DNA of 64,000 nucleotides, taken from assembly GCA_017513095.1 (NCBI GenBank), contig JAFWDJ010000007.1:39733-103732 (forward strand), given 5' to 3'. Within the stretch, counting starts at the first letter, position 1. The number at the start of each line of letters is the position of its first letter. The stretch comes from Clostridia bacterium. Its GTDB lineage: Bacteria; Bacillota; Clostridia; Oscillospirales; RGIG577. This document shows positions 2,083-63,950 of this stretch, piece by piece. Under the pieces are notes generated by a model. The model ran no database searches. It was not told the DNA's origin and worked only from the letters and a program-made list of their open reading frames with translations. A program made the translations under genes and the position numbers.

Positions 2083-2092
2083 GGGAAGACGG

Positions 2093-2137
2093 GTGCGAAA
2101 AAGATGGATTTGCGGTTTTAATGGATGGATTGGAATA
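2093..2137. repeat. Copy X of a ~45-57-bp conserved intergenic element (more diverged copy)
   Basis: gtgcgaaaaagatggatttgcggttttaatggatggattggaata aligns with copies Y (14422-14477) and Z (18107-18163). Confidence 0.6.
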
Positions 2138-2215
2138 CACGATTTGTGATATCACATACATAAAAGAACGGCGCTTCTGTCAAGAATACCGTTCTCATTT
2201 GTTAAAACAATCGCT

Positions 2216-5667: not shown

Positions 5668-5669
5668 AC

Positions 5670-8509: not shown

Positions 8510-8526
8510 CTCTCCTTTCCTTGAGA

Positions 8527-9098: not shown

Positions 9099-9145
9099 GG
9101 CAAACATTCATAAAAACACAGGCTTACAGGCCCTTTCTTTTTTAC

Positions 9146-9174
9146 ATTTTACCAAAAAATTTTCATTTTTGCAA
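9146..9174 (-). promoter_or_regulatory. CRISPR leader promoter (TTGCAA, 17 nt, TGgTAAAAT) within the A+T-rich leader 9099-9282
   Basis: The minus strand reads cTTGCAAaaatgaaaattttttggTAAAATg. Spacing is 17 nt with an extended -10 TG. It lies about 45 nt upstream of the first repeat. Confidence 0.6.
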
Positions 9175-9282
9175 GCGCAGCGTGAAAAAAGCGCGGTCTT
9201 TTTCGCTCCGGCACGTCCGATTTTTGTGCGAACGTATCATCGTATGCGGCATATTAAAGAGCTTCAGCGCCGCTGCCCGCGT

Positions 9283-10620: not shown

Positions 10621-10678
10621 ATTGTTCCTTCCTTTCCGTTTGGTATTCCGCGAATCTTCACGGTTGCTCTGTATTATT

Positions 10679-10707
10679 ATTATACCAACCTCGCATCACA
10701 TTTCATA
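10679..10707 (-). promoter_or_regulatory. Duplicated extended -10 promoter, now upstream of csm6
   Basis: It has the same TATGAA, 17 nt, TGgTATAAT arrangement as 1989-2017. Confidence 0.5.
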
Positions 10708-10743
10708 GCAGAAAATCGAACTAATTTGCTGCGGCAATGCAGT

Positions 10744-10772
10744 AAAAAACGCACGCCTAAGCGTGCGCTTTT
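10744..10772. terminator. Bidirectional terminator (duplicate of 2054-2082)
   Basis: The hairpin GCACGC-CTAA-GCGTGC and its A/T flanks are identical to those at 2054-2082. Confidence 0.7.
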
Positions 10773-10828
10773 GGGAAAGGGGCTAAAAAGACGGATTAGA
10801 GTGAAATATCTCCACTCGCGCCCGCAGA

Positions 10829-10895
10829 CATTTCACACGCCGCAGGCGTATTTCACGCGCGAAGCGCGTTTCACAAATCCGTGAAACGGATTTAT
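10829..10895 (+). repeat. Three tandem modules, each ATTTCAC followed by a short perfect hairpin
   Basis: The modules are atttcac-ACGCCgcaGGCGT, atttcac-GCGCgaaGCGC and tttcac-AAATCCGtgaaACGGATTT. A GTGAAAT (reverse motif) sits at 10801. Confidence 0.6.
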
Positions 10896-10902
10896 TTTGT
10901 TG

Positions 10903-14421: not shown

Positions 14422-14477
14422 TGTCTATGGGGTACGTAAAAGATGGATTTGCGTTTTTGATAGATGGATTCGAACCC
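14422..14477. repeat. Copy Y of the conserved intergenic element with a tRNA T-arm-like core
   Basis: tgtctatggggtacgtaaaagatggatttgcgtttttgatagatggattcgaaccc. It differs from copy Z by 2 substitutions and 1 indel (hand alignment). It starts 13 nt after the stop codon of the minus-strand gene 14491..15102. Confidence 0.85.
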
Positions 14478-14490
14478 TCGAAGTAATGAA

Positions 14491-18106: not shown

Positions 18107-18163
18107 TGTCTATGGGGTACGAAAAAGATGGATTTGCGTTTTTTGATAGATGGTTTCGAACCC
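18107..18163. repeat. Copy Z of the conserved intergenic element
   Basis: tgtctatggggtacgaaaaagatggatttgcgttttttgatagatggtttcgaaccc. It starts 13 nt after the stop codon of the minus-strand gene 18177..19418. Confidence 0.85.
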
Positions 18164-18176
18164 ATGTAGGGCTTTT

Positions 18177-20673: not shown

Positions 20674-21028
20674 TGGTGGAGGCGAGGAGAGTCGAACTCC
20701 TGTCCGAAAACACGTCCCCCCGACTTTCTACGGATATAGCCTGATGTTTATAATTCCCTACGATGCACGCCGACAGGCGGGCTTACATTTTCGGTAGCTT
20801 CATTTTACATGACGCGGGCAAAGCTTACCGCGTACACGTTCACCGCTGATCGACGCCCCATCCCATGCCGCGGTCCTCACGGGCGGGACGGCTGTGCGTA
20901 ATTACGCAGCTACTGCTAATCTGTTAGTTCTGTTAGCGTTTATTTTTAAAGTTGCCCGTTTTTAAATGGCCGGGCGCCATTATCCGCTTATCGGGCTTCG
21001 GCATCCCCGTCGAAACCGGTACGCCCCC
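20674..21028 (-). ncRNA. ssrA: tmRNA (transfer-messenger RNA)
   Basis: On the minus strand the 5' end is GGGGGCGTACCGGTTTCGACGGGGATGCC and the 3' end is GGAGTTCGACTCTCCTCGCCTCCACCA (T-arm, acceptor and CCA). The internal tag frame GCT AAC AGA ACT AAC AGA TTA GCA GTA GCT GCG TAA predicts the tag ANRTNRLAVAA. It lies directly downstream of smpB. Confidence 0.9.
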
Positions 21029-28722: not shown

Positions 28723-30114
28723 TTATTCGTCCAGAGCCCAGATCTCGTCGGGGGTAAGAACCTTCTTGCCCGGGATAATGTAAGCAACTCTCGTGGTGTT
28801 TAAAAGGTGCTTGTAGTTGAAGTTCTCACTGATGGAGTTACCGCCCCAAGAACCGCAGCCAAGGCTGGAGGTCGGAATGTAACCGTTCAGGTTTACAGGC
28901 GAGCCGGAAGCGAGAAGCAGCGGCTGATTAACGAGGTAACGGCAAACGGGCATACGTGCTGCAGCCTTCTCGATAAGAGCGTCGTCGTTCGACCAGATAC
29001 CGCCGGTGTGGCCTGCGCCTTCCTGGAAGTAGTTTCTTCTGCAGTTCTCGATTGCCTGATCGGGAGTGTCATAGGGAACGAATCTGATGATCGGAGCAAG
29101 GATCTCCTTGGAGAGGATATCTTCCTCTGCAAGGCCGTCTACTCTGCAAAGGAGGCAGATGGTCTCTTCCGGAACGCCGTCGATACCGAGCATCTTTGCA
29201 AGGCCGGAAGCCTTCTGACCAACGATCTTCGGCTGAATCTTGCCGGTCTCCTGGTTGAAAGCGTTCTTTCTAACCTTATCAACCTCAGCGGGATCCTTTA
29301 TGTCATAGCCGCCGTTTCTTACGAATGCAGCGATGATCTCTTCGCGCTTTTCCTTCGGAACGTGGAAGGTCTGCTCACCGGTGCAGGGAACGCCGTTGTC
29401 ATAGTTACGGCTGAACATAGCCTTCTGAGCCATGGTGTCGTAATCGGTCCAGTCGGGACCAACGATAAGCTGGGAGTTACCCTGACCTACGCCGTAAGCC
29501 GGAGTGCCGCTGGAGTAAGCAGCCTTAACCATGCTGGGGCCACCCGTTGCAACGATAACGTCGCAAGCGCTCATCAGTAAGCCGGTAAGCTCGATGGAGG
29601 GCTCATCGATGGACTGAACGAGGTTGTTGGGCGCGCCGAGCTCAACGAGCTTGTCGTTCATGATCTTGCAGGCGTGAGCGGTGCACTTCTTTGCAGCCGG
29701 ATGAGGAGCAACGATGATAGCGTTTCTCGTCTTTATAGCGTTCATTGCGTTGGTAGCAGCCGTAGTGGTCGGGTTCGTAACGGGAGTGATGGAAGCGAGA
29801 ACGCCCATCGGCTTTGCGAACTTGAGGATACCGTCAACGTCCTTGGTGTCTTCGATAAGACCAACGGAGGGCTTGCCGCATACTGCCCACCAGGTAGCGG
29901 TGGTAACGCCCTTGTGCTTGCCCACCTTGGACTCAACGGTGCCGTACTTCGTCTCTGCAACTGCTTCCTCGGAAAGCATCTGAGCTGCATCGAATATAGC
30001 CATACCGATAGCCTTGGTGAGCTCGTCGATCTTTTCCTGCGAGAAAGTATCTAAAATTGCCTGTGCCTCTTTTGCCTTTGCAACCAGGCTCTGGATGTAT
30101 TCTTTGTTATCCAT
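28723..30114 (-). CDS. CoA-acylating aldehyde dehydrogenase, SucD-like (paralog 1)
   Basis: 463 aa. The pattern MDNKEYIQSL...ITPVTNPTTT...IIVAPHPAAKK...ATGGPSMVKAAYSSGTPAYGVGQGNSQ resembles Clostridium kluyveri succinate-semialdehyde dehydrogenase (acylating). Confidence 0.75.
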   Translation of the reverse strand: MDNKEYIQSLVAKAKEAQAILDTFSQEKIDELTKAIGMAIFDAAQMLSEEAVAETKYGTVESKVGKHKGVTTATWWAVCGKPSVGLIEDTKDVDGILKFAKPMGVLASITPVTNPTTTAATNAMNAIKTRNAIIVAPHPAAKKCTAHACKIMNDKLVELGAPNNLVQSIDEPSIELTGLLMSACDVIVATGGPSMVKAAYSSGTPAYGVGQGNSQLIVGPDWTDYDTMAQKAMFSRNYDNGVPCTGEQTFHVPKEKREEIIAAFVRNGGYDIKDPAEVDKVRKNAFNQETGKIQPKIVGQKASGLAKMLGIDGVPEETICLLCRVDGLAEEDILSKEILAPIIRFVPYDTPDQAIENCRRNYFQEGAGHTGGIWSNDDALIEKAAARMPVCRYLVNQPLLLASGSPVNLNGYIPTSSLGCGSWGGNSISENFNYKHLLNTTRVAYIIPGKKVLTPDEIWALDE

Positions 30115-30161
30115 AATTGGTGTTCCTCCTAATATATATTCAATAATAATTTTTTACTAAA

Positions 30162-31538
30162 TTAGCCCATCTGCCAGATTTCTTCGTGGGAAGGACTGTG
30201 AACGCCCTTGAGCGGATATGCCACTCTCGTGGTGTTCATGAAGTGATAGTAAGTGAGGTTCTCACTGATGGAGTTGTTGCCCCACGAACCGCAGCCCAGC
30301 GAAGAGGTAGGCATAAGACCGTTCTGCTGTCTGCCGCTGCCTGCAACGTTCGGCTGATTTACAACCATGCGGCATACGGGGATACGGTCGCCTGCGAGCT
30401 TGATGTTGTCATCATTTTCGGAGTAAACGGTTGCGGAGTGGCCTGCGCCTTCCATAAGGAGGTTCGTTCTTGCATGCTCAACGCCTTCTGCAAAGTTCTC
30501 GCACGGTAATACGCGGAGGATCGGGCACATGATCTCGCGTGCCAGGGGCTCGCCCTTGCCGCACTTTTCAACTCTCATGATAAGGAGCTTAGCATCCTCG
30601 GGGCAGCCTTCAACGCCTGCAAGCTTGCAAGCCTGGGGCGGAAGCTTACCTACGATCTGGGTGTTCGGTCTGCCTTCGGGCGTGAAAGCAACCTGACGGA
30701 TCTTGTCTATATCAGCCGGATCCTTAACTTCCCAGCAGCCGTTGTCGATGAATGCCTTGATAACTGCGTCTTCCTTGCCCTTCGGAACGTGAATGGTCTG
30801 CTCACCGGTGCAGGGAACGCCGTTGTCATAAGCGCGGCTCATGATAACGTTCTTAGCCATGGTGTCATAGTCGGTGTAAGTGGTGTCAAGTACAACCTGT
30901 GCATTACCCTGACCCACGCCGAAGGAAGGCTTGCCGCTGGAGTAAGCTGCCTTAACCATGCCGGGGCCGCCCGTTGCAACAACGACGTCTGCAAGCTCCA
31001 TAGCGAGGTTCGTAAGCTCTAAGGACGGCTCTTCGATGCACTGAACGAGATCAGCGGGAGCGCCGATGGAAACGAGCGTCTCACGGATGATGTCAACAGC
31101 GTGCTTCGAGCACTTCTTTGCGCTCGGATGAGGAGCAACAATGATAGCGTTTCTGCACTTTAATGCCGGCATAGCGTCTGCGATAACAGTCGTGGTCGGG
31201 TTCGTGCTGGGGGTAACGCAAGTGATAACACCCAAAGGCTTTGCAAACTCAATAAGGCCTCTCTCGGGGATTCTCTTAACGATACCAACAGACGGCTTGC
31301 CTCTCATAGCGAGGTACTGGTTTGCGCAAACACCTGCGTGCTTAGCAACCTTACCGGGAACGTTGCCGAAGTGAGTCTCTTCAACTGCTTCCTTGGAAAG
31401 CTCTTCTCTTGCATCGTAGATAGCCTTACCGATGGCTCTTACCATCTTGTCTACCTGCTCCTGGGTGTAAGTCTCGATAGACTCCTGCGCCTTTCTGCCC
31501 TTATCGATCAGGCTCTGGATGTATTCTTTGTTGTCCAT
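30162..31538 (-). CDS. CoA-acylating aldehyde dehydrogenase, SucD-like (paralog 2)
   Basis: 458 aa with the same N-terminus MDNKEYIQSL and colinear motifs. It lies 47 nt upstream of paralog 1. Confidence 0.75.
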   Translation of the reverse strand: MDNKEYIQSLIDKGRKAQESIETYTQEQVDKMVRAIGKAIYDAREELSKEAVEETHFGNVPGKVAKHAGVCANQYLAMRGKPSVGIVKRIPERGLIEFAKPLGVITCVTPSTNPTTTVIADAMPALKCRNAIIVAPHPSAKKCSKHAVDIIRETLVSIGAPADLVQCIEEPSLELTNLAMELADVVVATGGPGMVKAAYSSGKPSFGVGQGNAQVVLDTTYTDYDTMAKNVIMSRAYDNGVPCTGEQTIHVPKGKEDAVIKAFIDNGCWEVKDPADIDKIRQVAFTPEGRPNTQIVGKLPPQACKLAGVEGCPEDAKLLIMRVEKCGKGEPLAREIMCPILRVLPCENFAEGVEHARTNLLMEGAGHSATVYSENDDNIKLAGDRIPVCRMVVNQPNVAGSGRQQNGLMPTSSLGCGSWGNNSISENLTYYHFMNTTRVAYPLKGVHSPSHEEIWQMG

Positions 31539-33054: not shown

Positions 33055-33074
33055 CGCGTTTGGAGGTTGTTTTT

Positions 33075-35435
33075 ATGACTGAACGTGTACGAAAATTAAG
33101 AGAACAGAGCCTTAACACGGCTCCGCGCATAGATATGGAGCGCGCGCGCCTTGAAACGGAATGCTATAAGCGTTTCGAGGGCACGATGAGCGTGCCCGAG
33201 CTTCGCGCCGCCGTTTTGAAATACCTGATGGAGCATAAAACGCTGTACTTCGGCGAGGGCGAGCTCATCGTCGGTGAAAAGGGCGCGTCGCTTCAGACGG
33301 CTCCCACCTTCCCCGAGCTTTGCTGCCACACGACAGGCGACATGCTCACGATGGACCGCCGCGAGCTTATCTCGTTTAAAGTAACCGATGACGATATCGC
33401 GCTTCAGCGCGACGTGATAATACCGTTCTGGGAGAACCGCAGTATGCGAAAAAAGCTCATAGGCGCCATGAGCGACGAATGGAAGGCCTGCTACGAGGCG
33501 GGCATTTTCACCGAATTCATGGAGCAGCGCGGCCCCGGACATACCGTCGGAAGCGAGAATATATATAAAAAGGGCTTTCTTGACTATAAATCGGACATAC
33601 GCGCGGCCACAGACGCGCTCGACTTTGAAAACGACCCCTCTGCCCTCTCGCGCCTTGAGCAGCTTCGCGCGATGGACACGGCGTGCGACGCGATAATCAT
33701 ACTCGGCGAAAGATACAGAAAGCTTGCGCTTTCACTTTACGAAAAAGAGACCGACGAAAACCGCCGCTCGGAGCTATTGACGATCGCCGGAAATCTTGAG
33801 GTCGTGCCCGCTCACAAGCCGGAAACGTTTCATCAGGCGCTTCAGATGTACTGGCTCGTTCACCTGTGCGTAACGAGCGAGTTAAATCCCTGGGACGCGT
33901 ACAGTCCCGGCAGGCTCGATCAGCATCTTTATAAGTTCTACAAGCGTGACGTCGAAGCGGGACGCCTCACGCGGGAGCGTGCGCTCGAGCTTATGGAATG
34001 TCTTTGGGTCAAGTTCAACAATCAGCCCGCGCCGCCCAAGGTTGGCATAACGCTCAAGGAAAGCGGCACGTATACCGACTTTGCCAACATAAACACCGGC
34101 GGCATAACGCCCGAGGGCGAAAACGGCGTAAACGACGTAAGCTTTATAATTCTCGACTGCATGGACGAAATGCGGCTTCTTCAGCCGAGCTCCAATGTAC
34201 AGATAAGCCGCAAAAATCCCGACGAATTCTTATACCGTGCCTGCGAAATATCGAAAAAAGGCTGGGGTCAGCCCGCCTTTTACAATACCGAGGCGATAAT
34301 CGCGGAGCTTTTGAACGCGGGCAAGTCGCTTTCGGACGCCTACCGCGGCGGGACGAGCGGCTGCGTTGAAACGGGCGCCTTCGGAAACGAGGCGTATATC
34401 CTGACGGGCTACTTCAATCTGCCCAAAATCCTCGAGCTTACCTTAAACAACGGCTATGACAGGCGCACAGAGCGTCAGCTTGGGCCTAAGCTTGGCTTTG
34501 CGGAGGATTTCAAGTCTTTCGACGAGCTTTTTTCGGCCTATAAAAAGCAGGTGCGCCATTTTATCGACATAAAGGTGCGCGGCTCAAATATAATAGAGCA
34601 GCTTTACGCGAAATATATGCCCGTGCCGTTCTTGTCGGTCATAACGAACGACTGCATCTCGCGCGGACTCGACTACAACGCGGGCGGCGCGCGCTACAAT
34701 ACGTCTTATCTTCAGGGCGTGGGCATCGGCACGATAACCGATTCGCTCACCGCGATAAAATACAACGTCTTCGATAAAAAGAATTTCACGATGGCCGAGC
34801 TTTCGCGCGCGCTTTCTGACAACTTTGAGGGGCACGAGCGCATACTCGCGCTCGTACGCGGAAAAACGCCCAAATACGGCAACGACGACGATTACGCCGA
34901 CGGCGTCATGCGCGAGGTGTTCGGATTTTACCGCACCTGCGTCACCGGCCGAAGCAACACGCGCGGCGGCATGTGGCGCATAAACATGCTGCCCACTACC
35001 TGCCACGTCTACTTCGGCGAGGTCATGGGCGCAAGCGCGAACGGCCGCCTTGCGGGAAAGCCCGTCTCCGAGGGCATATCTCCCGCCAAGGGAGCCGATA
35101 TTTACGGCCCCACCGCAGTTTTAAAGTCGTGCGCGAAGATGGACCAGCTCAAAACGGGCGGCACGCTTTTAAATCAGAAGTTCGTCCCCTCCGCGATCGC
35201 GGGAGAAACCGGCACGAAAAATTTAGGCTCGCTCATACGCGCCTATTTTGAAATGGGCGGTCATCATATACAGTTCAACGTGATAGACACGCAAACGCTC
35301 AGGGACGCGCAGGCGCATCCCGAGAATTACCGCGACCTTATCGTGCGCGTGGCGGGCTACAGCGACCACTTCAACAACTTAAGCCGCGCGCTGCAGGACG
35401 AGATAATCGAGCGCACGGCCCACGCCGCGCTGTAA
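33075..35435 (+). CDS. hypD: Glycyl radical enzyme of the 1,2-eliminase class, most similar to trans-4-hydroxy-L-proline dehydratase (HypD)
   Basis: Glycyl radical motif RVAGYSDHFNNL near the C-terminus and a thiyl loop GTSGCVETG (Cys plus Glu, dehydratase-type). Long stretches (WVKFNNQPAPPKVGITLKESGTYTDFANINTGG, GWGQPAFYNTEAI, KTPKYGNDDDYAD) agree with my recollection of HypD. This was not verified by search. Confidence 0.6.
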   Translation: MTERVRKLREQSLNTAPRIDMERARLETECYKRFEGTMSVPELRAAVLKYLMEHKTLYFGEGELIVGEKGASLQTAPTFPELCCHTTGDMLTMDRRELISFKVTDDDIALQRDVIIPFWENRSMRKKLIGAMSDEWKACYEAGIFTEFMEQRGPGHTVGSENIYKKGFLDYKSDIRAATDALDFENDPSALSRLEQLRAMDTACDAIIILGERYRKLALSLYEKETDENRRSELLTIAGNLEVVPAHKPETFHQALQMYWLVHLCVTSELNPWDAYSPGRLDQHLYKFYKRDVEAGRLTRERALELMECLWVKFNNQPAPPKVGITLKESGTYTDFANINTGGITPEGENGVNDVSFIILDCMDEMRLLQPSSNVQISRKNPDEFLYRACEISKKGWGQPAFYNTEAIIAELLNAGKSLSDAYRGGTSGCVETGAFGNEAYILTGYFNLPKILELTLNNGYDRRTERQLGPKLGFAEDFKSFDELFSAYKKQVRHFIDIKVRGSNIIEQLYAKYMPVPFLSVITNDCISRGLDYNAGGARYNTSYLQGVGIGTITDSLTAIKYNVFDKKNFTMAELSRALSDNFEGHERILALVRGKTPKYGNDDDYADGVMREVFGFYRTCVTGRSNTRGGMWRINMLPTTCHVYFGEVMGASANGRLAGKPVSEGISPAKGADIYGPTAVLKSCAKMDQLKTGGTLLNQKFVPSAIAGETGTKNLGSLIRAYFEMGGHHIQFNVIDTQTLRDAQAHPENYRDLIVRVAGYSDHFNNLSRALQDEIIERTAHAAL

Positions 35436-35490: not shown

Positions 35491-35731
35491 CTTTTCGGCA
35501 CGCTGACAGGGTACCAAAAAAGAGGTCAGAATTGTCGATTGCCGAGCGTCGGCGTATGTTATACGTTAGAGAAGGCAATCGACACATAGCCGAAAACGCC
35601 GTAACCCAAAGGTTACGGCGCAAAAGTCGATTTGAAAAAGTGTGCATAACATTTTTGATTCGTAAACTGTATGCACACTTTTTTTGCTTTAATATTATAT
35701 TCTTTTCGGCGGTCTGGCCCTTTTTTGACAG
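35491..35731 (-). repeat. Structured repeat element, copy 1 (minus orientation)
   Basis: The reverse complement aligns with 45444-45680. A core of about 130 nt is about 90% identical by hand count and the 5' part is more divergent. It contains the hairpins GCGCCGTAACCtttgGGTTACGGCG and GTCGATTGCC...GGCAATCGAC and a bidirectional-terminator-like AGTGTGCATA...TATGCACACT. Confidence 0.85.
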
Positions 35732-35799
35732 ACTGTGAAAAGGCAGGCGCTTTCGCGCCTGCCCTTTCCAAAGCGAGGTCGTCTTATATAAAGACCGGT

Positions 35800-36645
35800 T
35801 TATTTGCTGTAATCGTAGAAGCCCTTGCCGCTCTTTCTGCCGAGCAGACCTGCGCGTACCATCTTGCGAAGCAGCGGATGAGCCGCATACTTCTGATCGC
35901 CCATCTCCTTATAGAGAACGTCGCAGACTGCGAGCACAACGTCAAGACCTACGAGGTCGCCGAGTGCAAGCGGACCCATCGGGTGATTTGCGCCGAGCTT
36001 CATGGCGGTGTCGATATCCTCGGCGGAAGCTATGCCGTCGGCGTAGATGCCTATTGCCTCGTTTACCATCGGAACGAGTATTCTGTTAACTACGAATGCG
36101 GGTGCTTCCTTTACCTGTACGGGAGTCTTGCCGAGCTCAACGGCCATTTTGGTAACAAATTCGTTCGTTGCGGCGTCGGTAAGCTGACCGTTTATAACCT
36201 CAACGAGCTTCATTGCGCCAACGGGATTGAAGAAGTGCATACCGATAACCTTCTCGGGGCGCTTGGTCGCGCTTGCAAGCAGCGTTATCGAAAGCGAAGA
36301 AGTGTTCGTAGCGAAAATAACGTCGGGCTTGCAGATCTCGTCGAGCTGCTTGAAAATATCGAGCTTTATGTCAATATTCTCAGCGATGGACTCAACGATA
36401 AAGTCTCTGTCCGCAAAGTCTTCGAGCTTAGTCGTATCCTTTATGCGGGCTATGGTCGCGTCCATATACTCCTGAGTTATCTTTTCCTTGGCAACAGCCC
36501 TGGACATAACCTTATTTATCGTCTTGTACGCGCCGTCCAGTGTGGACTGATGACGGCTTCTCATTAAAACTTCGTGTCCTGCCTCTGCAAATGCCTGAAC
36601 TATGCCTGCGCCCATTGCGCCCGAACCGAGTACGCCAACCTTCAT
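35800..36645 (-). CDS. hbd: 3-hydroxybutyryl-CoA dehydrogenase
   Basis: [20 protein letters not shown] Rossmann motif, 281 aa, next to crt and thl. Confidence 0.9.
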
Positions 36646-38667: not shown

Positions 38668-39019
38668 TACTGTCACCTCTCGTAAATATTTTTATAATAA
38701 TTATAACCTGAGATTTATGGAACATCTCCTGTTCCAATTAAATATTAGCATTTTAATCATTGAATTGCAATATCTTTCACGAATTTTAATGCAATTTTAA
38801 TAAACATTGTTGATTTTTTATCAAACTAAGGGGGCGTTTTTGAGCAAAAATTATAACTAATGAACAATCGAAGCCCTTTTTAATCCCGTGCGGGCACAAA
38901 ATCGCACAATAAAATTGACACCCCGCTTCCGATTTTGTATGATATAGTCAAATCAGCGGCGTATTCGCCGAGTGTCAAAAAAACAATAAATATAATTATA
39001 AAGAACGGAGATGTTATTT

Positions 39020-39544
39020 ATGATCTATGCATTTGACGGCCACTCCCCCGTTATCGAAGAGGGCGCATATGTAAGCGAAACGGCGATAGTCATCGGCGAC
39101 GTTTTCATCGGCAGGGACTGCTACATAGGCCACGGCGCCGTGATCCGCGGCGACTACGGCCGCGTCGAGATCGGCGAAGGCACGGCGGTCGAGGAGGGCG
39201 TTATAATCCATGCGCCGCCCGGCAGAGCATGCAAAATAGGAAAGCGCGTGACCTTCGGCCACGGCGCGATAATCCATTCGAGGGTCATTGAGGACTTCGT
39301 ACTCGTCGGCATGGGCGCAATAACGAGCCTCGGCACCGAAATCGGCGAGTTCGCGATAATCGCCGAAGGTTCCGTCGTAAAGATGATGGACAAGATACCG
39401 CCGCGCGTCATGGCGGCGGGCTCTCCCGCGCGCGTTATACGCCCCGTAAGCGACCGCGAGTTTGAGTTCTGGAAAGAGGACAAGCAGAATTACGTGGACC
39501 TCGCGCACAAGTATTTAAAGCAGGGCATGCAGCGTATCGGCTGA
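39020..39544 (+). CDS. Gamma-carbonic-anhydrase-like / hexapeptide-repeat (PaaY/CaiE-like) protein, paralog 1
   Basis: MIYAFDGHSPVIEEGAYVSETAIVIGDV with left-handed beta-helix repeats. Confidence 0.8.
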   Translation: MIYAFDGHSPVIEEGAYVSETAIVIGDVFIGRDCYIGHGAVIRGDYGRVEIGEGTAVEEGVIIHAPPGRACKIGKRVTFGHGAIIHSRVIEDFVLVGMGAITSLGTEIGEFAIIAEGSVVKMMDKIPPRVMAAGSPARVIRPVSDREFEFWKEDKQNYVDLAHKYLKQGMQRIG

Positions 39545-39645
39545 ATATGACCTATATTTGACATCCGGCCTTTCTTTTTTATATAATGTAACCGATATTA
39601 AAATATGTCGCGCACATATAATAAAAAAGAACGGAGATGTAAAAA

Positions 39646-40170
39646 ATGATCTATGCTTTTGACGGACACAGCCCCGTTATCGAAGAGGGCGCATACGTAA
39701 GCGAGACCGCGATAGTTATAGGCGACGTCGTAGTGGGCAAGGGCGCATACGTCGGCCACGGCGTTATCCTTCGCGGCGACTACGGCCGCATCGAGATAGG
39801 CCCCGAAACGGCCGTTGAGGAAGGCGTTATCGTTCACGCGCCGCCGAACGACGTGTGCAAAATAGGAAAGCGCGTGACACTGGGTCACGGCGCGATAATC
39901 CACTCGAAGGAGATCGAGGATTTCGTCGTTATCGGCATGGGCGCCGTTACGAGCCTCGGCACCGTTATCGGCGAATACTCCATCGTAGCCGAGGGCGCGG
40001 TAGTAAAGATGAACGCGAAGATTCCGCCTAAGGTAGTCGTTGCAGGCTCGCCCGCAAAGGAGGTGCGCCCCGTTTTGGAGCGCGACACGAAGCTCTGGTC
40101 GATGGGCAAGCAGCTCTACGTCGATCTTGCGCAGAAGTATCTTAAGATCGGCATGCAGCGTCTTGATTAA
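39646..40170 (+). CDS. Gamma-carbonic-anhydrase-like / hexapeptide-repeat protein, paralog 2
   Basis: The first 28 residues are identical to paralog 1. The RBS contexts are also similar (gaacggagatgt...). Confidence 0.8.
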   Translation: MIYAFDGHSPVIEEGAYVSETAIVIGDVVVGKGAYVGHGVILRGDYGRIEIGPETAVEEGVIVHAPPNDVCKIGKRVTLGHGAIIHSKEIEDFVVIGMGAVTSLGTVIGEYSIVAEGAVVKMNAKIPPKVVVAGSPAKEVRPVLERDTKLWSMGKQLYVDLAQKYLKIGMQRLD

Positions 40171-44593: not shown

Positions 44594-45373
44594 GTGACGT
44601 ATAAAAAGCTTTTGATAATATTTATAATAGGAATAATCCTCGTCGGCGCGGGCGCGGGCGTTTCAGTAGCCGAATTCGGAAGCTACCGCAATATGGGCGA
44701 AAAAACGATTCCGAGCAGCGAGGAGGACATAAGGACGGAAAGCTTCGATATAGTGCTTTCGGGCTCCCCCGAGGACAGAAGGGTGACGCTTGAGCTTAAC
44801 CCCTACGATCAGCGGCTTAACGCTGTCGTACCCGTCTTCACAGAGGACGAGTCACTGACGGACGGCCTTATCCGCATTGAAACGAAGTACAACGGCCGTT
44901 ATTACTATATGGACGTGGAACATTCGCGGATTCTTACGGTCGACGGCGAGGAAAAACCCGATTTCGGCTACGACGCAGAGCTCGGACGGTATTACTACAT
45001 TAAGACCGTCGAAGACGAATACTCCTTCGACGACGAGGAATATTTCGACGAGGACGGATACATCGGCGGCGAGGAATATTTCGACGAGGACGAATACTTT
45101 GACAAGGACGAATACAATGGCGGCGATGACGTAATCGTGTCCCCCCGCGCGGAAAAAATATATCCCGAAACGGGGCATTATAAGGTGAACGAGGATATAA
45201 CGGTCTATTCGTACACCGCACACTCCGCCTTCTTCGGAATTCCGAACGGCGTGAGCATTGCCGACGTGCTCGAGGACTTAAAGCACAGGGAGATATACAC
45301 GTACGTAAGACCCGCCGACTTTTCGGTGACCGTTTTCGGAAACAAAAGTACTCTCGCGGAAATAGAATACTAA
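44594..45373 (+). CDS. Membrane-anchored hypothetical protein, third gene of the padR operon
   Basis: GTG start, N-terminal TM helix and an acidic DEEYFDEDGY repeat region. Confidence 0.55.
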   Translation: MTYKKLLIIFIIGIILVGAGAGVSVAEFGSYRNMGEKTIPSSEEDIRTESFDIVLSGSPEDRRVTLELNPYDQRLNAVVPVFTEDESLTDGLIRIETKYNGRYYYMDVEHSRILTVDGEEKPDFGYDAELGRYYYIKTVEDEYSFDDEEYFDEDGYIGGEEYFDEDEYFDKDEYNGGDDVIVSPRAEKIYPETGHYKVNEDITVYSYTAHSAFFGIPNGVSIADVLEDLKHREIYTYVRPADFSVTVFGNKSTLAEIEY

Positions 45374-45411: not shown

Positions 45412-45440
45412 GCGGAAGCCGCTTTCACGGCTTCCGCTTT
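45412..45440. repeat. 29-bp terminator hairpin, left copy of a perfect direct duplication
   Basis: GCGGAAGCCGctttcaCGGCTTCCGCttt is identical to 45705-45733. Confidence 0.95.
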
Positions 45441-45704
45441 ATGCTGTCAAAAAAGGGTCGGACCGCCGAAAAGGATAAAATATCAGAACAAATAATGTGT
45501 GCAGCCATTTTACAAATCAAAAATTCCGGCACATCGTATCAGCGCGGCTTTTGCGCCGTAACCTTTGGGTTACGGCGTTTTCGGCTATATGCCGATTGCC
45601 TTCTCTGCCGTATTTAATACGCCGACGTTCGGCAATCGACAATTCCAACCTCTTTTTTTGGCACCCTGTCAGCGTGTCGAAATAGTGTGTTTCGACACGC
45701 TGAC
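45441..45704 (+). repeat. Structured repeat element, copy 2 (plus orientation), 264 bp
   Basis: It starts atgCTGTCAAAAAAGGG and ends with a perfect 15-bp hairpin GTCAGCGTGTCGAAA...TTTCGACACGCTGAC. It is homologous to the reverse complement of 35491-35731. Confidence 0.85.
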
Positions 45705-45733
45705 GCGGAAGCCGCTTTCACGGCTTCCGCTTT
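45705..45733. repeat. 29-bp terminator hairpin, right copy of the duplication
   Basis: Identical to 45412-45440 and followed by an extended T-run. Confidence 0.95.
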
Positions 45734-45735
45734 TT

Positions 45736-46563
45736 TCAGTCGCAGCAGCAGTTATCTTCAAACGCGCTCTTATTGGGCGGGAAGAAGTCGTCAATCGGGA
45801 AATTGAACTGTGAAAACAGCTCGCACGGATCCTGATCGGTGCCCGCGGACGCGCCCTCGCAGTCCCTCTGCGGGATGCAGAAGTCGTAAACGGGTATGAG
45901 AAGCTGTACCTTTCTCGACAGTCTGATTATCGAGAAAATACCCACCGTAACAAGAATCTGCTTGTCGGCCTCGGCCGTTATTTCGTCCTCGAACACGCCC
46001 GAAACGCAGCGCGGCAGGCTCTCCGCGTCGAAATTGCAGCAGCAACAGCACGAGCAGCAGTTATCGCCCGCCGACTCGGGCTCGGCAATCCTTGCCTGAA
46101 GGATCATCGGGTCTACCGTTTCAACGCTCGCCTCGGGCAGATTATTCGTCTGACGGAGCGCGCTGTCGCTGTCGCCCGCCGTGATCTTCGAGCTAAACGT
46201 TCTCGCGGAGCCCTCCGAACCGAACAGGATGACCGTCTTATCCGCCATAGCCACGCCCGTCACGTTTACGGACTGTCCCATGCCGGTGAATACCTCGAGC
46301 GTTATCCTGAAATAGTAGCGGATGGTCACGGAATAATATCCGCGGTTGAACGATATTGGCTCCGCGTCGATATCCACCCAGATAAGCTCTATATCCTTCG
46401 AGCGCACGCTTATCGCCTTGTTTATGACCGGCATCGTGCATCTTGGGAAGTAAACGGGGATATCCCTAAGACAGTCGCGGTCCCGGCAGGAGTCGTATAT
46501 GCGCTTCGTATCGATACATACGGCTTCACGTACCGCCCGCGCAGTCTCGTTTCTTGCAGCCAT
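45736..46563 (-). CDS. Cysteine-rich hypothetical protein (275 aa)
   Basis: N-terminal CxxxxxxxxxCxxxxC (VCIDTKRIYDSCRDRDC), an internal run DNCCSCCCCCNF and a C-terminus NCCCD. No family was recognised. Confidence 0.6.
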   Translation of the reverse strand: MAARNETARAVREAVCIDTKRIYDSCRDRDCLRDIPVYFPRCTMPVINKAISVRSKDIELIWVDIDAEPISFNRGYYSVTIRYYFRITLEVFTGMGQSVNVTGVAMADKTVILFGSEGSARTFSSKITAGDSDSALRQTNNLPEASVETVDPMILQARIAEPESAGDNCCSCCCCCNFDAESLPRCVSGVFEDEITAEADKQILVTVGIFSIIRLSRKVQLLIPVYDFCIPQRDCEGASAGTDQDPCELFSQFNFPIDDFFPPNKSAFEDNCCCD

Positions 46564-59537: not shown

Positions 59538-62500
59538 ATGAAAAAGAAGGTTTTAAGCCTCATTGTGGCACTCGTTATGGTGCTTACGATGCTCCCCGTG
59601 ACGGGTCTGGCGGCGGATACGCCTCCGGCGGTAAACATCACGCAGATAAGCTACGCCGACGGCGCAGTCAGCCTTGCATGGCAGGCGCAGGACGGCGTTG
59701 ACGGCTACCGAGTGTACCGCAAAACGGGTACGGGTTCGTGGACGAGCATACTTTCGTCTACAACGGCGACGTCGTATGTCGACGACACCGTAACGGAGGG
59801 CAAAACGTATTCGTATACGATTCGCTCGTTCGTAGGCAAGACGTACAGCGCGGGCTACGCCGACACGGCTAAGACGATAACCGCGAAAGCATCGGTTGAG
59901 ACGCAGCCCGTGACGATAACGTCGATTAGCTACGCTAACGGTGCAGTCAGCCTCGCATGGCAGGGACAGGACGGCGTGGACGGCTACCGCGTATATCGCA
60001 AGACCGGCTCGGGCAAATGGTCGACTGTGCTTTCCTCTACGACGGCGACTTCATACGTCGACAACACCGTAACGGAGGGCAAGACGTACAGTTATACCAT
60101 CCGTTCAAAAGTGGGAAGCACGTGGAGCACCGGATATGACGCGACGGCGAAGACTATCACGGCGAAAGCCGCAGTCGAGCCGCAGCCCGTGACAATAACG
60201 TCGATAAGCTACGCTAACGGCGCGGTCAGCCTTGCTTGGCAGGCGCAGGACGGCGTTGACGGCTACCGCGTGTATCGCAAGACCGGCTCCGGCAAGTGGA
60301 CAACCGTTTTGTCTTCCACGACGGCAACGTCGTACAAAGATACCACCGTAACCGAAGGCACAACATACAGCTATACTATCCGCTCCAACGTCGGCAGCGC
60401 ATGGAGCACGGGCTATGCCGATACGGCGGCGACCATCACGGCGAAAGCCGCAGTCGATCCGATGCCTGTAACAATAACGTCTATAAGCTACGCGAACGGC
60501 GCTGTCAGCCTTGCTTGGCAGGGACAGGACGGCGTTGACGGCTACCGAGTATACCGCAAGACCGGCTCCGGCAAGTGGACGATCGTTTTATCCTCAACGA
60601 CGGGCACATCGTACACCGATACCACCGTAACCGAAGGCACAACATACAGCTATACTGTCCGCTCCAACGTCGGCAGTGCATGGAGCACGGGATATGCCGA
60701 TACGGCGGCAACGATAACGGCAAAGCCCGCAGTAGAGCCTGCGCCCGTAACGATAACGTCGATTGACTACGCAAACGGCGCAGTAAGCCTCGCTTGGCAG
60801 GGACAGGACGGCGTTGACGGCTACCGCGTATACAGAAAGACCGGTTCCGGCAAGTGGACCGTGCTTCTTTCGTCCACGACGGCGACGAGCTATACCGATA
60901 CTACGGTGACCGAGGGCACCACGTACAGCTATACCATACGCTCCAACGTCGGCAGCGCATGGAGCACGGGCTATGCAGATACGGCGGCAACAATAACGGC
61001 GAAGGCCGCAGTCGATCCGATGCCCGTGACGATAACCGACATAAGCTACGCAGACGGCGCGGTGAGCCTCGCTTGGCAGGGACAGGACGGCGTCGACGGC
61101 TACCGCGTATATCGCAAGACCGGCTCCGGCAAGTGGACGAGCATTTTATCCTCCACTACGGAAACGAGCTACACCGACACAACGGTGACAGAAGGTACTA
61201 CATACAGCTATACGATCCGTTCGTTCGTCGGCAAGACGTACAGCACCGGCTACGACGCGACGGCGAAGTCGATAAAAGTTTCTCCCGCCGCACCCCCCGA
61301 CGTGAACATAAACATGATAACGCAGAGCAGCACGGGCGGCATAAAAATAGCGTGGGATGCGGCGGATAATGTTGACGGCTACCGCGTATACAAAAAGTCC
61401 GGCAGCGGAAGCTGGAAGACGGCTCTTTCCAACACTACCGACACAACGTTCATCGATACCGACGTAACGCCCGGAGTGACGTATTATTATACGGTGCGTT
61501 CTGTAAAGGGCGGCGTATGGAGCACAGGATATAACGACACGGCAAAGAGCTTTAAGGCGGGCACGCCGGGGCTTTGGTCGAACGGTGGAACTATTAACGG
61601 CATTGACGATAAGACTGTAGAAAAAGTATACATTCCCGTATCGATTGACGGCGCAGCCGTGACGAGCATTGGCGGGTATGCCTTCCGGAACTGTAGCAGT
61701 CTTACGTCGGTAATTATTCCCGAGGGTGTGACGAGTATTGGCGAGCATGCATTCGACAACTGCAGCAGTCTTACGACGGTAATTATTCCTGAGGGGGTAA
61801 CAAGCATAGGGGCATGGACGTTCGCATACTGTAGCAATCTTACATTGGTAATTATTCCCAAGAGCGTGACGTGCATAAGTTACGGAGCGTTCCGGAACTG
61901 TAGCAGTCTTAAGTCGATGACTATACCCGAGGGCGTGACGTGTATAGAGAACGATACGTTCTCCGGTTGCAGCAGTCTTACGTCTGTGACGATACCGTCG
62001 AGCGTGACGAGCATTGGAGAAAGTGCGTTCCATACCTGCAGCAGCCTTACGTCTGTGACAATACCGGAAGGCGTGACGTGTATAGAGGAAGATACGTTCA
62101 GAGGCTGCAGCAGTCTTACGTCCGTGACGATACCGTCGAGCGTGATGAGCATTGGAAAATATGCGTTCTTGAAATGCATCAGCCTTACGTCGGTGACGAT
62201 ACCCGAAGGCGTGACGTGTATAGAGGAAGATACGTTCTCCGGTTGCAGCAGTCTTACGTCCGTGACGATACCTTCGAGCGTGACGAGCATTGGAGAACGT
62301 GCGTTCCATACCTGCAGCAGCCTTACGTCCGTGACGATACCGTCGAGCGTGACGAGCATTGGAGAACGTGCGTTCCAACTTTGCAGCGGGCTTACGTCCG
62401 TGACGATACCCGAAGGCGTGACGAGCATTGCATACCAAGCGTTCTCCGGTTGCAGCGGCCTTACGTCGGTGATGATACCCGAAGGCGTGACGAGCATTGC

Positions 62501-63950
62501 ATACCAAGCGTTCTCCGGTTGTAGCGGCCTTACGTCGGTTACGATACCCGAAGGCGTGACGAGCATTGGCTCATATGCGTTCTCGGGCTGCACCGGCCTT
62601 ACGTCCGTGACAATACCGTCGGGCATTACAAGCATTGGCGACGGTATATTCCAAGGCTGCAGTAGTCTTACGTCGGTAATGATACCCGAAGGAGTGACGA
62701 GTATAGGCGAGCGCGCATTCCAAACCTGTGAAAGTCTTACATCCGTGACAATACCGTCAAGCGTTAAGGACATAGGCGATTATGCGTTCCAGAATTGCAG
62801 AGGCCTTGTGTCCGTAACGATATCGGAGGGCGTTGAAAGCATAGGCAAGGGAGCGTTTTCAAACTGTACTGCTCTTACGTCGATAACAATACCGTCGAGC
62901 GTTAAATCTATCGGTGCAGATGCGTTCAAGTATTGCAAGCTTACGGACATAAAGGTCGAAAGTGGAAACAATTCTTATGTGTCGGTTGACAACGTGCTTT
63001 TTACAAAAGATATGAAAACACTCGTAAAGTGCTCGGTTGACGTGACCGGAGCTTATGCGATACCATCCGGCGTGACCGATATAAGCGAATACGCATTCTA
63101 TAACTGCAGACAGATCACTTCATTAAGCATACCGTCGAGCGTAACGAAAATAGGCAAGTATGCCTTCGAACAATGCAGAGGGCTTACGTCTTTGATTATT
63201 CCGAAAAGCGTGACGGATATAGGCGGCGGAGCGTTCAGAAAGTGCTGGAATCTTACGTCGATAACCGTTGATAAGGATAATGCGGCATATGTTTCGACGG
63301 ACGGCGTGCTGTTCACTAAAGACAAGAAAACCATCGTCGCTTTTCCGTATGGCAAAGCTGTGTCTTATTCCATTCCGTCAGGGGTTACGACAATAGGCTG
63401 CAACGCATTTGACGGATGTGATAAGCTTACGTCCGTGACTATTCCGTCCAGCGCAAAGAGCATTGGCAATTATGCGTTCTACAACTGCAGCAGTCTTACG
63501 TCGGTAACGATTTCGAATGGCGTGACGAGCATTGACCAAGCCGCATTTCAAGGATGCAGCAGTCTTACGTCGGTAACTATCCCTTCGAGCGTGACGAGCA
63601 TTGGCCAACTCGCATTTCAAGGATGCAGCAGTCTTACGTCGGTAACTATCCCTTCGAGTGCGAGGCAAATTGATGGGGGCGTTTTCCGCGACTGTACTTC
63701 GCTTACATCGATTGTGATTCCCGAAGGCGTGACGGTCATAAACCAGTTATTCAGAAATTGTACAGCACTCAAGTCGGTTTCTATACCGAAAAGCGTTACT
63801 GATATATATGCTTCTTCGTTTGAAGGCTGCACCGCTCTTACGGACGTATATTATGCCGGAACACATGATGAGTGGAGCACAATAAATATAAACGAGAATA
63901 ATAATGACCCCCTCTATAGCGCCACCATCCACTACAACAGCGCGCCGTAA
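59538..63950 (+). CDS. Giant secreted surface protein: signal peptide, 7 Fn3-like repeats, about 30 BspA-type leucine-rich repeats
   Basis: The start was moved to MKKKVLSLIVALVMVLTMLPVTGLAADT (signal peptide). The upstream 79 codons of the track ORF lack coding character. Confidence 0.85.
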   Translation: MKKKVLSLIVALVMVLTMLPVTGLAADTPPAVNITQISYADGAVSLAWQAQDGVDGYRVYRKTGTGSWTSILSSTTATSYVDDTVTEGKTYSYTIRSFVGKTYSAGYADTAKTITAKASVETQPVTITSISYANGAVSLAWQGQDGVDGYRVYRKTGSGKWSTVLSSTTATSYVDNTVTEGKTYSYTIRSKVGSTWSTGYDATAKTITAKAAVEPQPVTITSISYANGAVSLAWQAQDGVDGYRVYRKTGSGKWTTVLSSTTATSYKDTTVTEGTTYSYTIRSNVGSAWSTGYADTAATITAKAAVDPMPVTITSISYANGAVSLAWQGQDGVDGYRVYRKTGSGKWTIVLSSTTGTSYTDTTVTEGTTYSYTVRSNVGSAWSTGYADTAATITAKPAVEPAPVTITSIDYANGAVSLAWQGQDGVDGYRVYRKTGSGKWTVLLSSTTATSYTDTTVTEGTTYSYTIRSNVGSAWSTGYADTAATITAKAAVDPMPVTITDISYADGAVSLAWQGQDGVDGYRVYRKTGSGKWTSILSSTTETSYTDTTVTEGTTYSYTIRSFVGKTYSTGYDATAKSIKVSPAAPPDVNINMITQSSTGGIKIAWDAADNVDGYRVYKKSGSGSWKTALSNTTDTTFIDTDVTPGVTYYYTVRSVKGGVWSTGYNDTAKSFKAGTPGLWSNGGTINGIDDKTVEKVYIPVSIDGAAVTSIGGYAFRNCSSLTSVIIPEGVTSIGEHAFDNCSSLTTVIIPEGVTSIGAWTFAYCSNLTLVIIPKSVTCISYGAFRNCSSLKSMTIPEGVTCIENDTFSGCSSLTSVTIPSSVTSIGESAFHTCSSLTSVTIPEGVTCIEEDTFRGCSSLTSVTIPSSVMSIGKYAFLKCISLTSVTIPEGVTCIEEDTFSGCSSLTSVTIPSSVTSIGERAFHTCSSLTSVTIPSSVTSIGERAFQLCSGLTSVTIPEGVTSIAYQAFSGCSGLTSVMIPEGVTSIAYQAFSGCSGLTSVTIPEGVTSIGSYAFSGCTGLTSVTIPSGITSIGDGIFQGCSSLTSVMIPEGVTSIGERAFQTCESLTSVTIPSSVKDIGDYAFQNCRGLVSVTISEGVESIGKGAFSNCTALTSITIPSSVKSIGADAFKYCKLTDIKVESGNNSYVSVDNVLFTKDMKTLVKCSVDVTGAYAIPSGVTDISEYAFYNCRQITSLSIPSSVTKIGKYAFEQCRGLTSLIIPKSVTDIGGGAFRKCWNLTSITVDKDNAAYVSTDGVLFTKDKKTIVAFPYGKAVSYSIPSGVTTIGCNAFDGCDKLTSVTIPSSAKSIGNYAFYNCSSLTSVTISNGVTSIDQAAFQGCSSLTSVTIPSSVTSIGQLAFQGCSSLTSVTIPSSARQIDGGVFRDCTSLTSIVIPEGVTVINQLFRNCTALKSVSIPKSVTDIYASSFEGCTALTDVYYAGTHDEWSTININENNNDPLYSATIHYNSAP
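59628..61580 (+). repeat. Seven tandem 279-bp (93-aa) repeats inside the surface-protein gene
   Basis: The period was verified at the PVTITSISYANGAVSLAWQGQDGVDGYRVYRKTGSGKW unit starts (59907, 60186 and onward). Repeats 2-6 are near-identical. Repeat 1 differs mainly at its N-terminal edge, and repeat 7 is clearly more diverged. Confidence 0.9.
61630..63850 (+). repeat. Array of 69-bp (23-aa) LRR units (SLTSVTIPEGVTSIGERAFxGCS)
   Basis: Consecutive units are visible in translation. Two adjacent units (about 62400-62540) are almost identical at the DNA level. Confidence 0.85.

Follow-up and report, generated by a model that had tools for sequence, protein, structure and literature searches.

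An intergenic stretch at 45.4 kb of the window, i.e. the whole 64-kb piece of DNA analyzed here, carries an elaborately folded repeat, and a second copy of it lies near 35.5 kb. The question raised by this locus is what the repeat represents: a small element derived from an insertion and carried in the transcripts of neighboring genes, the gene of a structured RNA, a DNA structure devoid of any RNA function, or a gene for a small protein. The answer was approached through the copies themselves, their fold, the constraint acting on it, the ends and surroundings of each copy, and a comparison with known systems.

Copies of the Element

Upon comparison by blastn, copy A (45444-45682, plus strand) and copy B (35731-35493, minus strand) aligned over 240 nt with 84.2% identity (E 4e-70), as had been proposed in the initial annotation of the region, which treated the two as homologous. 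The copies lie 9.7 kb apart in opposite orientation, and a repeat search of the window paired them in inverted orientation, one pair of arms being 130 nt long (86% identity) and another 81 nt (84%). Three diagnostic motifs of 23-30 nt were present solely at copies A and B within the 64 kb, with 0.00-0.01 chance matches expected. A third, more diverged copy (copy C, Table 1) occurs at an unrelated locus on a different metagenome contig and shares 72-75% identity with A and B; a second sample (L007) carries the copy C locus with identical sequence. The contig harboring copy C, k141_743647, has a G+C content of 53% versus 52% for the window and has no genes in common with it. On the source contig, the 7 kb left of the window contained no further copy, so that two copies per 71 kb were counted for this genome (window plus 7 kb) and one for another organism. 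The flanks of A, B, and C are mutually non-homologous. Inside copy C a nested 39-nt hairpin was seen, a member of a separate small repeat family found elsewhere on the same contig. The core measures 217-260 nt across the three copies, and ~217-240 nt is the size quoted here for the element. The element disrupts short-read assemblies: contigs of the short-read sample SRR12529301 terminate within both window copies, as expected of repeated or variable sequence.

Throughout, the element is written in the sense of the initial annotation, which is the plus strand for copy A and the minus strand for copy B. Its complement, termed the opposite strand below, is the minus strand at copy A and the plus strand at copy B. 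At copy A the opposite strand gives a slightly better fold and runs in the direction of the upstream ORF 45736-46563; at copy B it has the direction of the pyruvate formate-lyase gene 33060-35435 and follows that gene. The interval originally delimited for copy A (45441-45704) proved to be exactly the DNA between two 29-nt direct repeats, and the last 37 nt of this interval (45668-45704) have to be set apart as a separate palindrome.

Table 1. Coordinates of the copies, their helices, and the bordering features
Feature	Position	Strand	Remarks
Copy A, interval between 29-nt repeats	45441..45704		264 nt; core element plus 3' palindrome
Copy A, core	45446..45662		217 nt; written on plus strand as in the initial annotation
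Copy B	35493..35731		sense of the initial description is window minus
Copy B, core	35514-35729		3' module of copy B, CCCTGTCAGCGTGCCGAAA, at 35493-35511
Copy C	ENA contig k141_743647 (ERZ28018703), L006 5975-6243	minus	between aldo-keto reductase gene and LtrA gene
Closing helix P1/P2, arm 1, copy A	45446..45464		GTCAAAAAAGGGTCGGACC; partner 45644-45662; doubles as imperfect terminal inverted repeat
Closing helix, arm 2, copy A	45644..45662		TCCAACCTCTTTTTTTGGC
P3, arm 1, copy A	45465..45472		GCCGAAAA; invariant in all three copies
P3, arm 2, copy A	45578..45585		TTTTCGGC; partner of GCCGAAAA
P4, copy A	45497..45534		variable AT-rich hairpin, GTGTGC...GCACAT
P4, copy B	35635..35683		AAAAAGTGTGCATA...TATGCACACTTTTT; 14-bp stem, longer than in A, perfect
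P5, central hairpin, copy A	45554..45577		CGCCGTAACC-TTTG-GGTTACGGCG; 10 bp, GC-rich
P5, copy B	35597..35620		same sequence as P5 of copy A
P6 and P7, copy A	45590..45641		P6 TGCCGATTGCC...GGCAATCGACA; P7 tip CGTAT-TTA-ATACG at 45609-45621
3' palindrome, copy A	45668..45704		perfect 15 bp, GTCAGCGTGTCGAAA-tagtgtg-TTTCGACACGCTGAC, 37 nt
Left 29-nt direct repeat	45412..45440	+	GCGGAAGCCGCTTTCACGGCTTCCGCTTT, exact; host bidirectional terminator hairpin
Right 29-nt direct repeat	45705..45733	+	terminator hairpin, then TTTTTT
Host terminator hairpin of hbd gene (35800-36645, minus)	35742..35763		GGCAGGCGCGAAAGCGCCTGCC; separated from copy B by 10 nt

A Branched Fold Common to the Three Copies

Single-sequence folds of A, B, and C revealed a common architecture that comprises the closing helix P1/P2 and the helices P3, P4, P5, P6, and P7. 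All stems named in the initial annotation were found again, in the sequence as well as in the minimum-free-energy folds. The closing helix pairs CAAAAAAGGG with CCTCTTTTTT(T)G. P3 is an invariant 8-bp long-range helix (GCCGAAAA/TTTTCGGC) that stacks on P5. The P4 hairpin of copy C is rebuilt from different sequence, and P5 of copy C has gained one extra base per arm (CCGTAAACC/GGTTTACGG) with the stem preserved. On the plus strand P5 is followed by TTTT, which lends it a terminator-like look, yet the T-tract is limited to 4 T, and the terminator scan did not call it. P6 is the GTCGATTGCC hairpin, (T)G(C/T)CGATTGCC/GGCAATCGACA, the stem of which can also be written G(C/T)CGATTGCC...GGCAATCGAC; it encloses CGTAT...ATACG, the 5-bp tip hairpin P7, whose loop reads TTA in A but AAC in B. 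The nested 39-nt insertion of copy C falls in a loop. Compared with dinucleotide shuffles, the folds reached z values of -6.3 to -8.0 with flanks and -4.0 to -9.3 for the core alone.

Constraint on the Helices and Preference for a Strand

When the three copies were aligned, 15 of 112 paired columns (13%) varied versus 54 of 104 unpaired columns (52%; p = 1e-9). The conserved core alone behaved likewise, with 11 of 100 paired and 13 of 33 unpaired columns being variable (p = 0.001). Standard pairs occupied 97.6% of the pair cells versus 37-41% with the partners slid. Identity was 87-90% for the ends and the P5-P6-P7 core, even between organisms, versus 54-71% for the P4 region (Fisher p 6e-4 to 1e-7). 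Within the ~100 nt of the core, identity amounted to 90% inside one genome and 87% between organisms, and this near-equality would be compatible with strong functional constraint. As judged from these alignments, the helices are shown to be maintained under purifying selection while the loops and one hairpin diverge.

Covariation was considered separately. Among the 56 pairs of the three sequences, there were 2 double and 7 one-sided changes, and with n = 3 sequences the covariation was not significant, 81-154 of 500 shuffles reaching the observed measures. In the initial annotation, a pair of the closing helix that differs on both sides between A and B had been put forward as a sign of selection on structure. 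The change, which lies in the inner part of this helix, is real (G:C at 45.4 kb and A:T at 35.5 kb), but a single pair does not constitute statistical evidence for such selection.

The two strands were then compared by means of a common pair set. The opposite strand yielded 10 G.U cells and 4 mismatches, the annotated strand 3 G.U cells and 11 mismatches, and half-compensatory sites numbered 5 versus 2. On the opposite strand the closing helix runs continuously over 14 bp with one conserved bulged A, and three of its pairs vary (U-A/U.G, U.G/C-G, and G-C/A-U). The alifold energy was -67 kcal/mol for this strand versus -46 for the annotated one. In single folds it was better by 7-9 kcal/mol, but so were its shuffles, and the gap in z came to only 0.4-0.7 SD. 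These values make us lean weakly toward the opposite strand as the one that would be relevant in RNA; the lean is weak because the common pair set had been derived on this very strand, because the outer end of the closing helix is biased in the reverse direction, and because the shuffles fold better too.

Ends, Insertion Footprint, and Neighboring Terminators

The two 29-nt direct repeats that bound copy A match perfectly, and each consists of a terminator hairpin plus TTT. The left one sits between the convergent ORFs 44594-45373 (plus) and 45736-46563 (minus). If the 264-nt insert and one repeat are taken out, the convergent genes are again separated by a normal bidirectional terminator, and the empty site before insertion of copy A would read ...ATATAAAGCGGAAGCCGCTTTCACGGCTTCCGCTTTTTTCAG... 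We read the 29-nt duplication as a clear insertion footprint. Duplication of a whole terminator hairpin is an unusual footprint and points to a little-documented hairpin-targeting insertion mechanism. At copies B and C no convincing target duplication was detected beyond a loose C-N-G-T-C at both ends. As the known copies number just three, from two organisms, the argument for mobility is built on the one footprint at copy A.

The element is bounded by the motif G(T/C)CAAAAAAGGG...CCTCTTTTTTGG. Its imperfect terminal inverted repeat of 12-17 nt, G(T/C)CAAAAAAG(A)GG, is short and A/T-rich, doubles as the closing helix, and extends to GACGG...CCGTC in copy C. Copies A and B have a 3' module in common, CCCTGTCAGCGTG(T/C)CGAAA, which is completed to the palindrome in A; just the left arm (up to CGAAA) is present in B, and the palindrome is missing from C. 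The 5' flanks differ among the copies (TTTATGCTGTC, CACAGTCTGTC, and TAAGACGGTC). The end motif occurred nowhere else in the window or the compared loci, and no autonomous partner with matching ends was found there (~100 kb in total, which makes this a weak test). None of the three copies has a transposase of any kind next to it.

In all three cases the same end of the element (5' in the annotated sense) lies 2-6 nt from a terminator made up of an A-tract, a hairpin, and a T-tract, the distance to the stem being 10 nt at copy B. The hairpins beside A, B, and C are unrelated in sequence, which indicates that these terminators are host sequences and not parts of the element. Read on the opposite strand, the order is gene stop, element, and intrinsic terminator at each of the three sites. 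The upstream genes on this strand are the 275-aa ORF 45736-46563 (minus) for copy A, the pyruvate formate-lyase gene 33060-35435 (plus) for copy B, and the aldo-keto reductase gene on L006 for copy C. The neighbors in general are ordinary chromosomal genes, hbd, crotonase, and thiolase among them. A conserved promoter was not found upstream of the three copies on either strand. The placement between stop codon and terminator, seen 3 times out of 3, suggests co-transcription with the neighboring gene. The proximity to terminators may in part mirror where short intergenic spacers tolerate insertions.

Database Searches

The search against Rfam, which the initial annotation had named as a check, returned no family for copy A or copy C, whichever strand was considered. 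With Rfam 15 nothing overlapped the element in the window at gathering thresholds. When copy A plus flanks was searched with E values up to 10, the one match inside the element was a 12-nt hit to nuoG (12 bits, E 9.1), and the remaining weak matches (<20 bits) were centered on the flanking terminators and the palindrome; copy C gave no match with E up to 0.1. Among the GTDB species representatives, a pattern consisting of the central hairpin plus TTTT, which would miss hairpins of the copy C type, retrieved only an unrelated Pseudomonas terminator. The conserved block TTCGGCTATNTGNCGATTGCCTTC gave five chance matches in membrane-protein genes (FGYLAIAF) and no true copy in the JGI metagenomes, and four different blocks gave nothing or chance matches in IMG/VR. 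In blastn searches of the PLSDB plasmids and the INPHARED phages, only a 40-nt look-alike of the 3' palindrome was encountered, on a gut phage-like scaffold; its E value of 6e-3 is to be read with the effective information halved, the sequence being palindromic.

Comparison with Known Systems

The bcr1 repeats (group A bcr repeats of the Bacillus cereus group) are ~155 bp long, occur in many copies, and always have 5-bp flanking direct repeats; they are mobile and transcribed, and their RNA adopts a branched fold with independent stem-loops that are kept by compensatory changes (PMC3184786). Like bcr1, the present repeat is small and intergenic, comes from a Firmicute, and shows mobile-element character and a branched fold. 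Unlike bcr1, it measures ~220-240 nt, is known from three copies, shows no short target duplication and a single one of 29 nt at A, and has no sequence similarity to bcr1. We consider bcr1 the best functional analogy. The ERIC and Correia (NEMIS) MITEs possess terminal inverted repeats, form RNA hairpins, are frequently located at gene 3' ends, undergo co-transcription, and are able to alter mRNA stability (PMC3184786). They are essentially a single long hairpin, have TA or short defined duplications, and live in proteobacterial hosts, whereas the element described here combines a closing helix with a three-way junction and five further helices and resides in a gut Firmicute-like MAG. Also described is a dispersed repeat of small size that structurally imitates an intrinsic terminator (PMC3184786). 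The likeness extends to the 10-bp GC hairpin plus TTTT on one strand; the difference is that the T-tract has 4 nt and also serves as a P3 arm and that the hairpin is here built into a larger fold as one of its modules.

With regard to the footprint, IS1630 of the IS30 family (Calcutt et al.) is described as creating unusually long 19-26-bp duplications of target inverted repeats (PMC2853133). Similarly, the duplication at copy A (29 nt) is exactly a hairpin plus TTT. The duplication is seen at one of three copies, and neither an IS30-type transposase nor a pair of matching ends was found, so that the parallel is an analogy of footprints and not one of membership. As for the choice of site, class C (IIC) group II introns reportedly insert just downstream of intrinsic terminator hairpins, an observation attributed to Robart, Seo and Zimmerly in 2007. 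On the annotated strand the element resembles them in that 3 of 3 copies start 2-6 nt past a hairpin and T-tract. A group IIC intron was nevertheless rejected: the element has 220 nt versus at least ~700 nt, and domain V/VI, a GUGYG 5' end, an ORF for a reverse transcriptase or intron-encoded protein, and an Rfam group II match were all missing.

As to MITEs, the element has a size below ~600 bp and no coding capacity. It is not filed as a strict MITE because a uniform short target duplication at every copy and an autonomous partner (~100 kb examined, a weak test) were not found and just three copies are known. It would seem to work like the bcr1/ERIC-type repeats, and it was not placed in any named family. 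Several further candidates were discarded. A riboswitch or leader does not fit copies A and B, which have no downstream gene on either strand, and a transcription unit with its own promoter does not fit either, as none is conserved. A retron, tracrRNA, 6S RNA, or omega-RNA was dismissed for want of an Rfam match and an associated gene. The two inverted copies do not delimit a composite transposon: the intervening 9.7 kb hold ordinary metabolic genes, and the copies are only 84% identical.

Nature of the Element

The initial annotation had settled on a structured, non-coding, MITE-like repeat or unclassified ncRNA instead of a gene. This held up, since copy C keeps the helices and breaks both candidate reading frames and since Rfam contains no match; the conservation of the paired columns and the insertion footprint of copy A back it as well. 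We hold with moderate confidence that the element is a small non-coding, non-autonomous, insertion-derived structured repeat that is probably co-transcribed in 3' UTRs and whose helices are kept by selection. Its sites are unrelated intergenic loci in both chromosomal orientations and in at least two organisms. It would have spread by transposition or by replication-linked copying, landing at or beside terminator hairpins, with the mobilizing enzyme supplied in trans. Once inserted, it would be transcribed together with the upstream gene and form the tail of that mRNA, in the sense of the opposite strand. In such a transcript the 14-bp closing helix with its bulged A and the three-way junction would come to lie a few nt before the terminator. 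As a 3'-UTR structure the element could affect mRNA decay, processing, or read-through, by analogy with the ERIC, Correia, and bcr1-type repeats.

If this reading is right, the element represents a new family among the small, structured repeats that occupy intergenic regions in Firmicutes. Lodged between the stop codons and the terminators of housekeeping genes, such as pyruvate formate-lyase beside the butyrate genes (hbd-crt-thl), it could change the stability of mRNA 3' ends or the read-through between convergent genes. The family appears to be undescribed but is ordinary in kind, and on present evidence it opens no new biological question.

The same features can be assembled differently. 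A stand-alone family of genes for a structured ncRNA (trans-acting sRNA, ribozyme, or protein-binding RNA), duplicated but not mobile and equipped with the adjacent terminator as its own, would explain why a compact multi-helix fold with a three-way junction is kept at 72-75% identity, why a ~100-nt core remains 87-90% identical between organisms while P4 drifts, and why stems are far more conserved than loops. It would likewise accommodate the compensated additional base pair in P5, the one G:C/A:T swap, and the excess of G.U on one strand (10 G.U plus 4 mismatches versus 3 plus 11), the same strand on which a terminator hairpin follows within a few nt in every copy. The adjacent terminators, however, are unrelated although the copies are 84% identical and are hence features of the host, and the 29-nt duplication of a host terminator at copy A marks an insertion. 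Moreover, there is no conserved promoter upstream on either strand and no Rfam family, the covariation is not significant, and the asymmetry of the strands is mostly compositional. We regard such a gene family as unlikely.

The internal core (~100 nt, 87-90%) shows more conservation than a decaying MITE would require, which hints at a function of its own. Carried further, this would lead to an undescribed ~220-nt class of structured RNA with its own biochemical function that has spread among gut Firmicutes by a mechanism targeting terminator hairpins, a proposal that we find rather unlikely. Its characteristics would be the 14-bp closing helix, the conserved bulged A, the three-way junction, and the invariant ~100-nt core, and it might act, for example, as a protein- or ligand-binding RNA or as a module for processing or ribozyme action located at mRNA 3' ends. 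The mechanism of spreading would then be an unusual one that can duplicate a whole hairpin (29 nt).

The hairpins might also operate purely at the level of DNA, as single-stranded structures or protein sites for transposition, for example in a remnant of an IS200/IS605-like (HUH) element, and have no RNA function at all. The two strands differ little in how well they fold, conservation is high at the ends and in the sub-terminal blocks, and the element is tied to hairpin or terminator targets and to other palindromes (45668-45704 and the nested REP-like hairpin of copy C). The lack of a short target duplication at B and C is what an HUH-type element predicts, but an IS200/IS605-type insertion would not be expected to leave the 29-nt duplication of copy A, and a conserved 4-5-nt target 5' of the element is missing beyond the loose C-N-G-T-C. 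In addition, no transposase adjoins any copy, TnpA was not seen in the sequence examined, and the internal three-way junction exceeds the two sub-terminal hairpins of such elements. We judge an exclusively DNA-level role to be improbable and favor the co-transcribed, insertion-derived repeat.

Coding Potential

On the reverse strand, both window copies contain an ORF, 35532-35738 (plus, 68 aa) in copy B and 45517-45648 (minus, 43 aa) in copy A, that starts with MSIAERRR(I/M)(K/L)Y(G/V)REGNRHIAENAVTQRLRRKSR... An AAGAGG Shine-Dalgarno-like motif precedes the TTG start by 6 nt in both. Over the shared 33 codons, 7 of the 10 nucleotide differences between A and B fall on third positions (hand-calculated binomial p ~0.02, or ~0.1 when six frames are allowed for). 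The equivalent ORF of copy C, P0001, had been predicted by a gene caller; among 5.8 billion predicted proteins it was the single match to the reverse-strand peptide and led to copy C in the first place. The peptide shared by the forward frames and the break of that frame at a T-run had both been reported correctly in the initial annotation, the run having 7 T in one copy and 6 T in the other.

Copy C breaks both candidate frames by the +1/+1 indel in the hairpin and the nested 39-nt insertion. Its frame shifts after the central hairpin (AENAVNRMVYGKK versus AENAVTQRLRRKSR), and 13 extra residues from the nested repeat interrupt the N terminus. The C termini of the ORFs in A (43 aa) and B (68 aa) are entirely different, and the Shine-Dalgarno-like motif is buried in the closing helix. 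Neither Pfam nor NCBIfam contains a family for the ORFs of the element. The protein search covered a collection of ~15 billion proteins in 5.8 billion clusters at 90% identity and 1.84 billion representatives at 50%; among the 1.84 billion representatives, HMMER found just P0001 and an unrelated repeat protein, P0002, and the forward-frame peptide of the initial annotation had zero matches. A gene for a small basic protein on the reverse strand, to which the ORF with its Shine-Dalgarno-like motif in both window copies, the third-position excess, and the called ORF in copy C might point, is therefore very improbable, given the changed frame and interrupted N terminus in C, the differing C termini in A and B, the lack of any relative except P0001, and the position of the motif inside a helix. 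None of the reading frames is kept in A, B, and C alike, and from this sequence comparison we conclude that the element is non-coding. A type I toxin-antitoxin or small-protein locus was rejected as well, the sole ORF with a Shine-Dalgarno-like motif being basic instead of hydrophobic and not being conserved in copy C. For genome annotation the element is worth masking, as it yields spurious ORFs, among them P0001 and those on the track of the initial annotation.

The palindrome beside copy A

The palindrome GTCAGCGTGTCGAAA...TTTCGACACGCTGAC (window 45668-45704), which forms the 3' end of the copy A insert, has a look-alike in the scaffold MT838893.1 (positions 2929-2967), with an E-value of only 6e-3. 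The look-alike directly follows a GC-rich hairpin, as does the palindrome in the window; the scaffold itself is unverified and gut phage-like. Because of the modest E-value, this match may be due either to chance or to a separate small palindromic repeat.

Sample origin and surroundings of copy C

The first 14,050 nt of the window match the ENA record ERZ28653837 XIEF21-1_SAMN15830013_METAG-scaffold_101 (144,302 nt) at 100%, with window position 1 corresponding to record position ~39537. The second occurrence of the diverged copy C also carries the study code XIEF21-1 (SAMN15830028). Thus, the two host organisms come from the same sample series.

Copy C holds one nested unit of a family of REP-like small hairpins that is distinct from the element. 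Related units are found in a 712-nt tandem duplication that has a large serine recombinase gene on one side and the aldo-keto reductase gene on the other. A mobilisable integrated element ends ~2.2 kb from copy C, with no demonstrated link to the repeat.

Other repeats and loci in the window

The features are listed in the table. The CRISPR-Cas locus is flanked by the two copies of a 183-nt repeat, one of which is 28 nt away from the Gut-1 RNA. In the Rfam search of the window, the other repeat copies received no Gut-1 call. Two tandemly duplicated gene pairs were seen at 38990-39915 and 28781-31249. A gene with a HAAS domain precedes the ORF at 44594-45373, one of two convergent ORFs around copy A. 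The gene for the large secreted protein consists of some seven repeats of 279 nt and over 20 tandem repeats of 69 nt.

Features of the window and of the surroundings of copy C (L006, contig k141_743647 with copy C; L019, record covering its surroundings)
Feature	Position	Strand	Description
183-nt repeat, two copies	window 1928-2110, 10618-10797		93% identity
52-nt repeat, three copies	window 2091-2142, 14430-14481, 18115-18166		
Type III-A CRISPR-Cas locus	window 2216-10620	-	csm6 (CARF/HEPN), cas10/csm1, csm2-5, cas6
CRISPR array	window 8516-9107		between csm6 and cas10; at least 9 repeats, GTTTCCGTCCCCTTGCGGGGTGTAGATTGTTTC, period 66-70
Gut-1 RNA	window 10825-10902	-	Rfam RF01706, 74 bits
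tmRNA gene	window 20674-21028	-	Rfam RF00023, 162 bits
Tandem pair, units ~1.43 kb	window 28781-31249		72-77% identity
Hexapeptide-repeat transferases, tandem pair	window 39011-39544, 39646-40170		79% DNA identity
18-nt tandem repeat	window 45009-45116		inside ORF 44594-45373 (+); codes for acidic (F/Y)D(D/E)E(D/E)-type stretch
Large secreted protein gene	window 59538-63950	+	signal peptide (MKKKVLSLIVALV...)
REP-like small hairpin family	L006 3823-4983, 6010-6053		CACCCC(A/G)AAAAAT.C..G.ATTTTTTGGGGACCCCGG
Mobilisable integrated element	L019 536-6398		MobC, relaxase, Rep (Phage_rep_org_N), IstB-like ATPase, large serine recombinase
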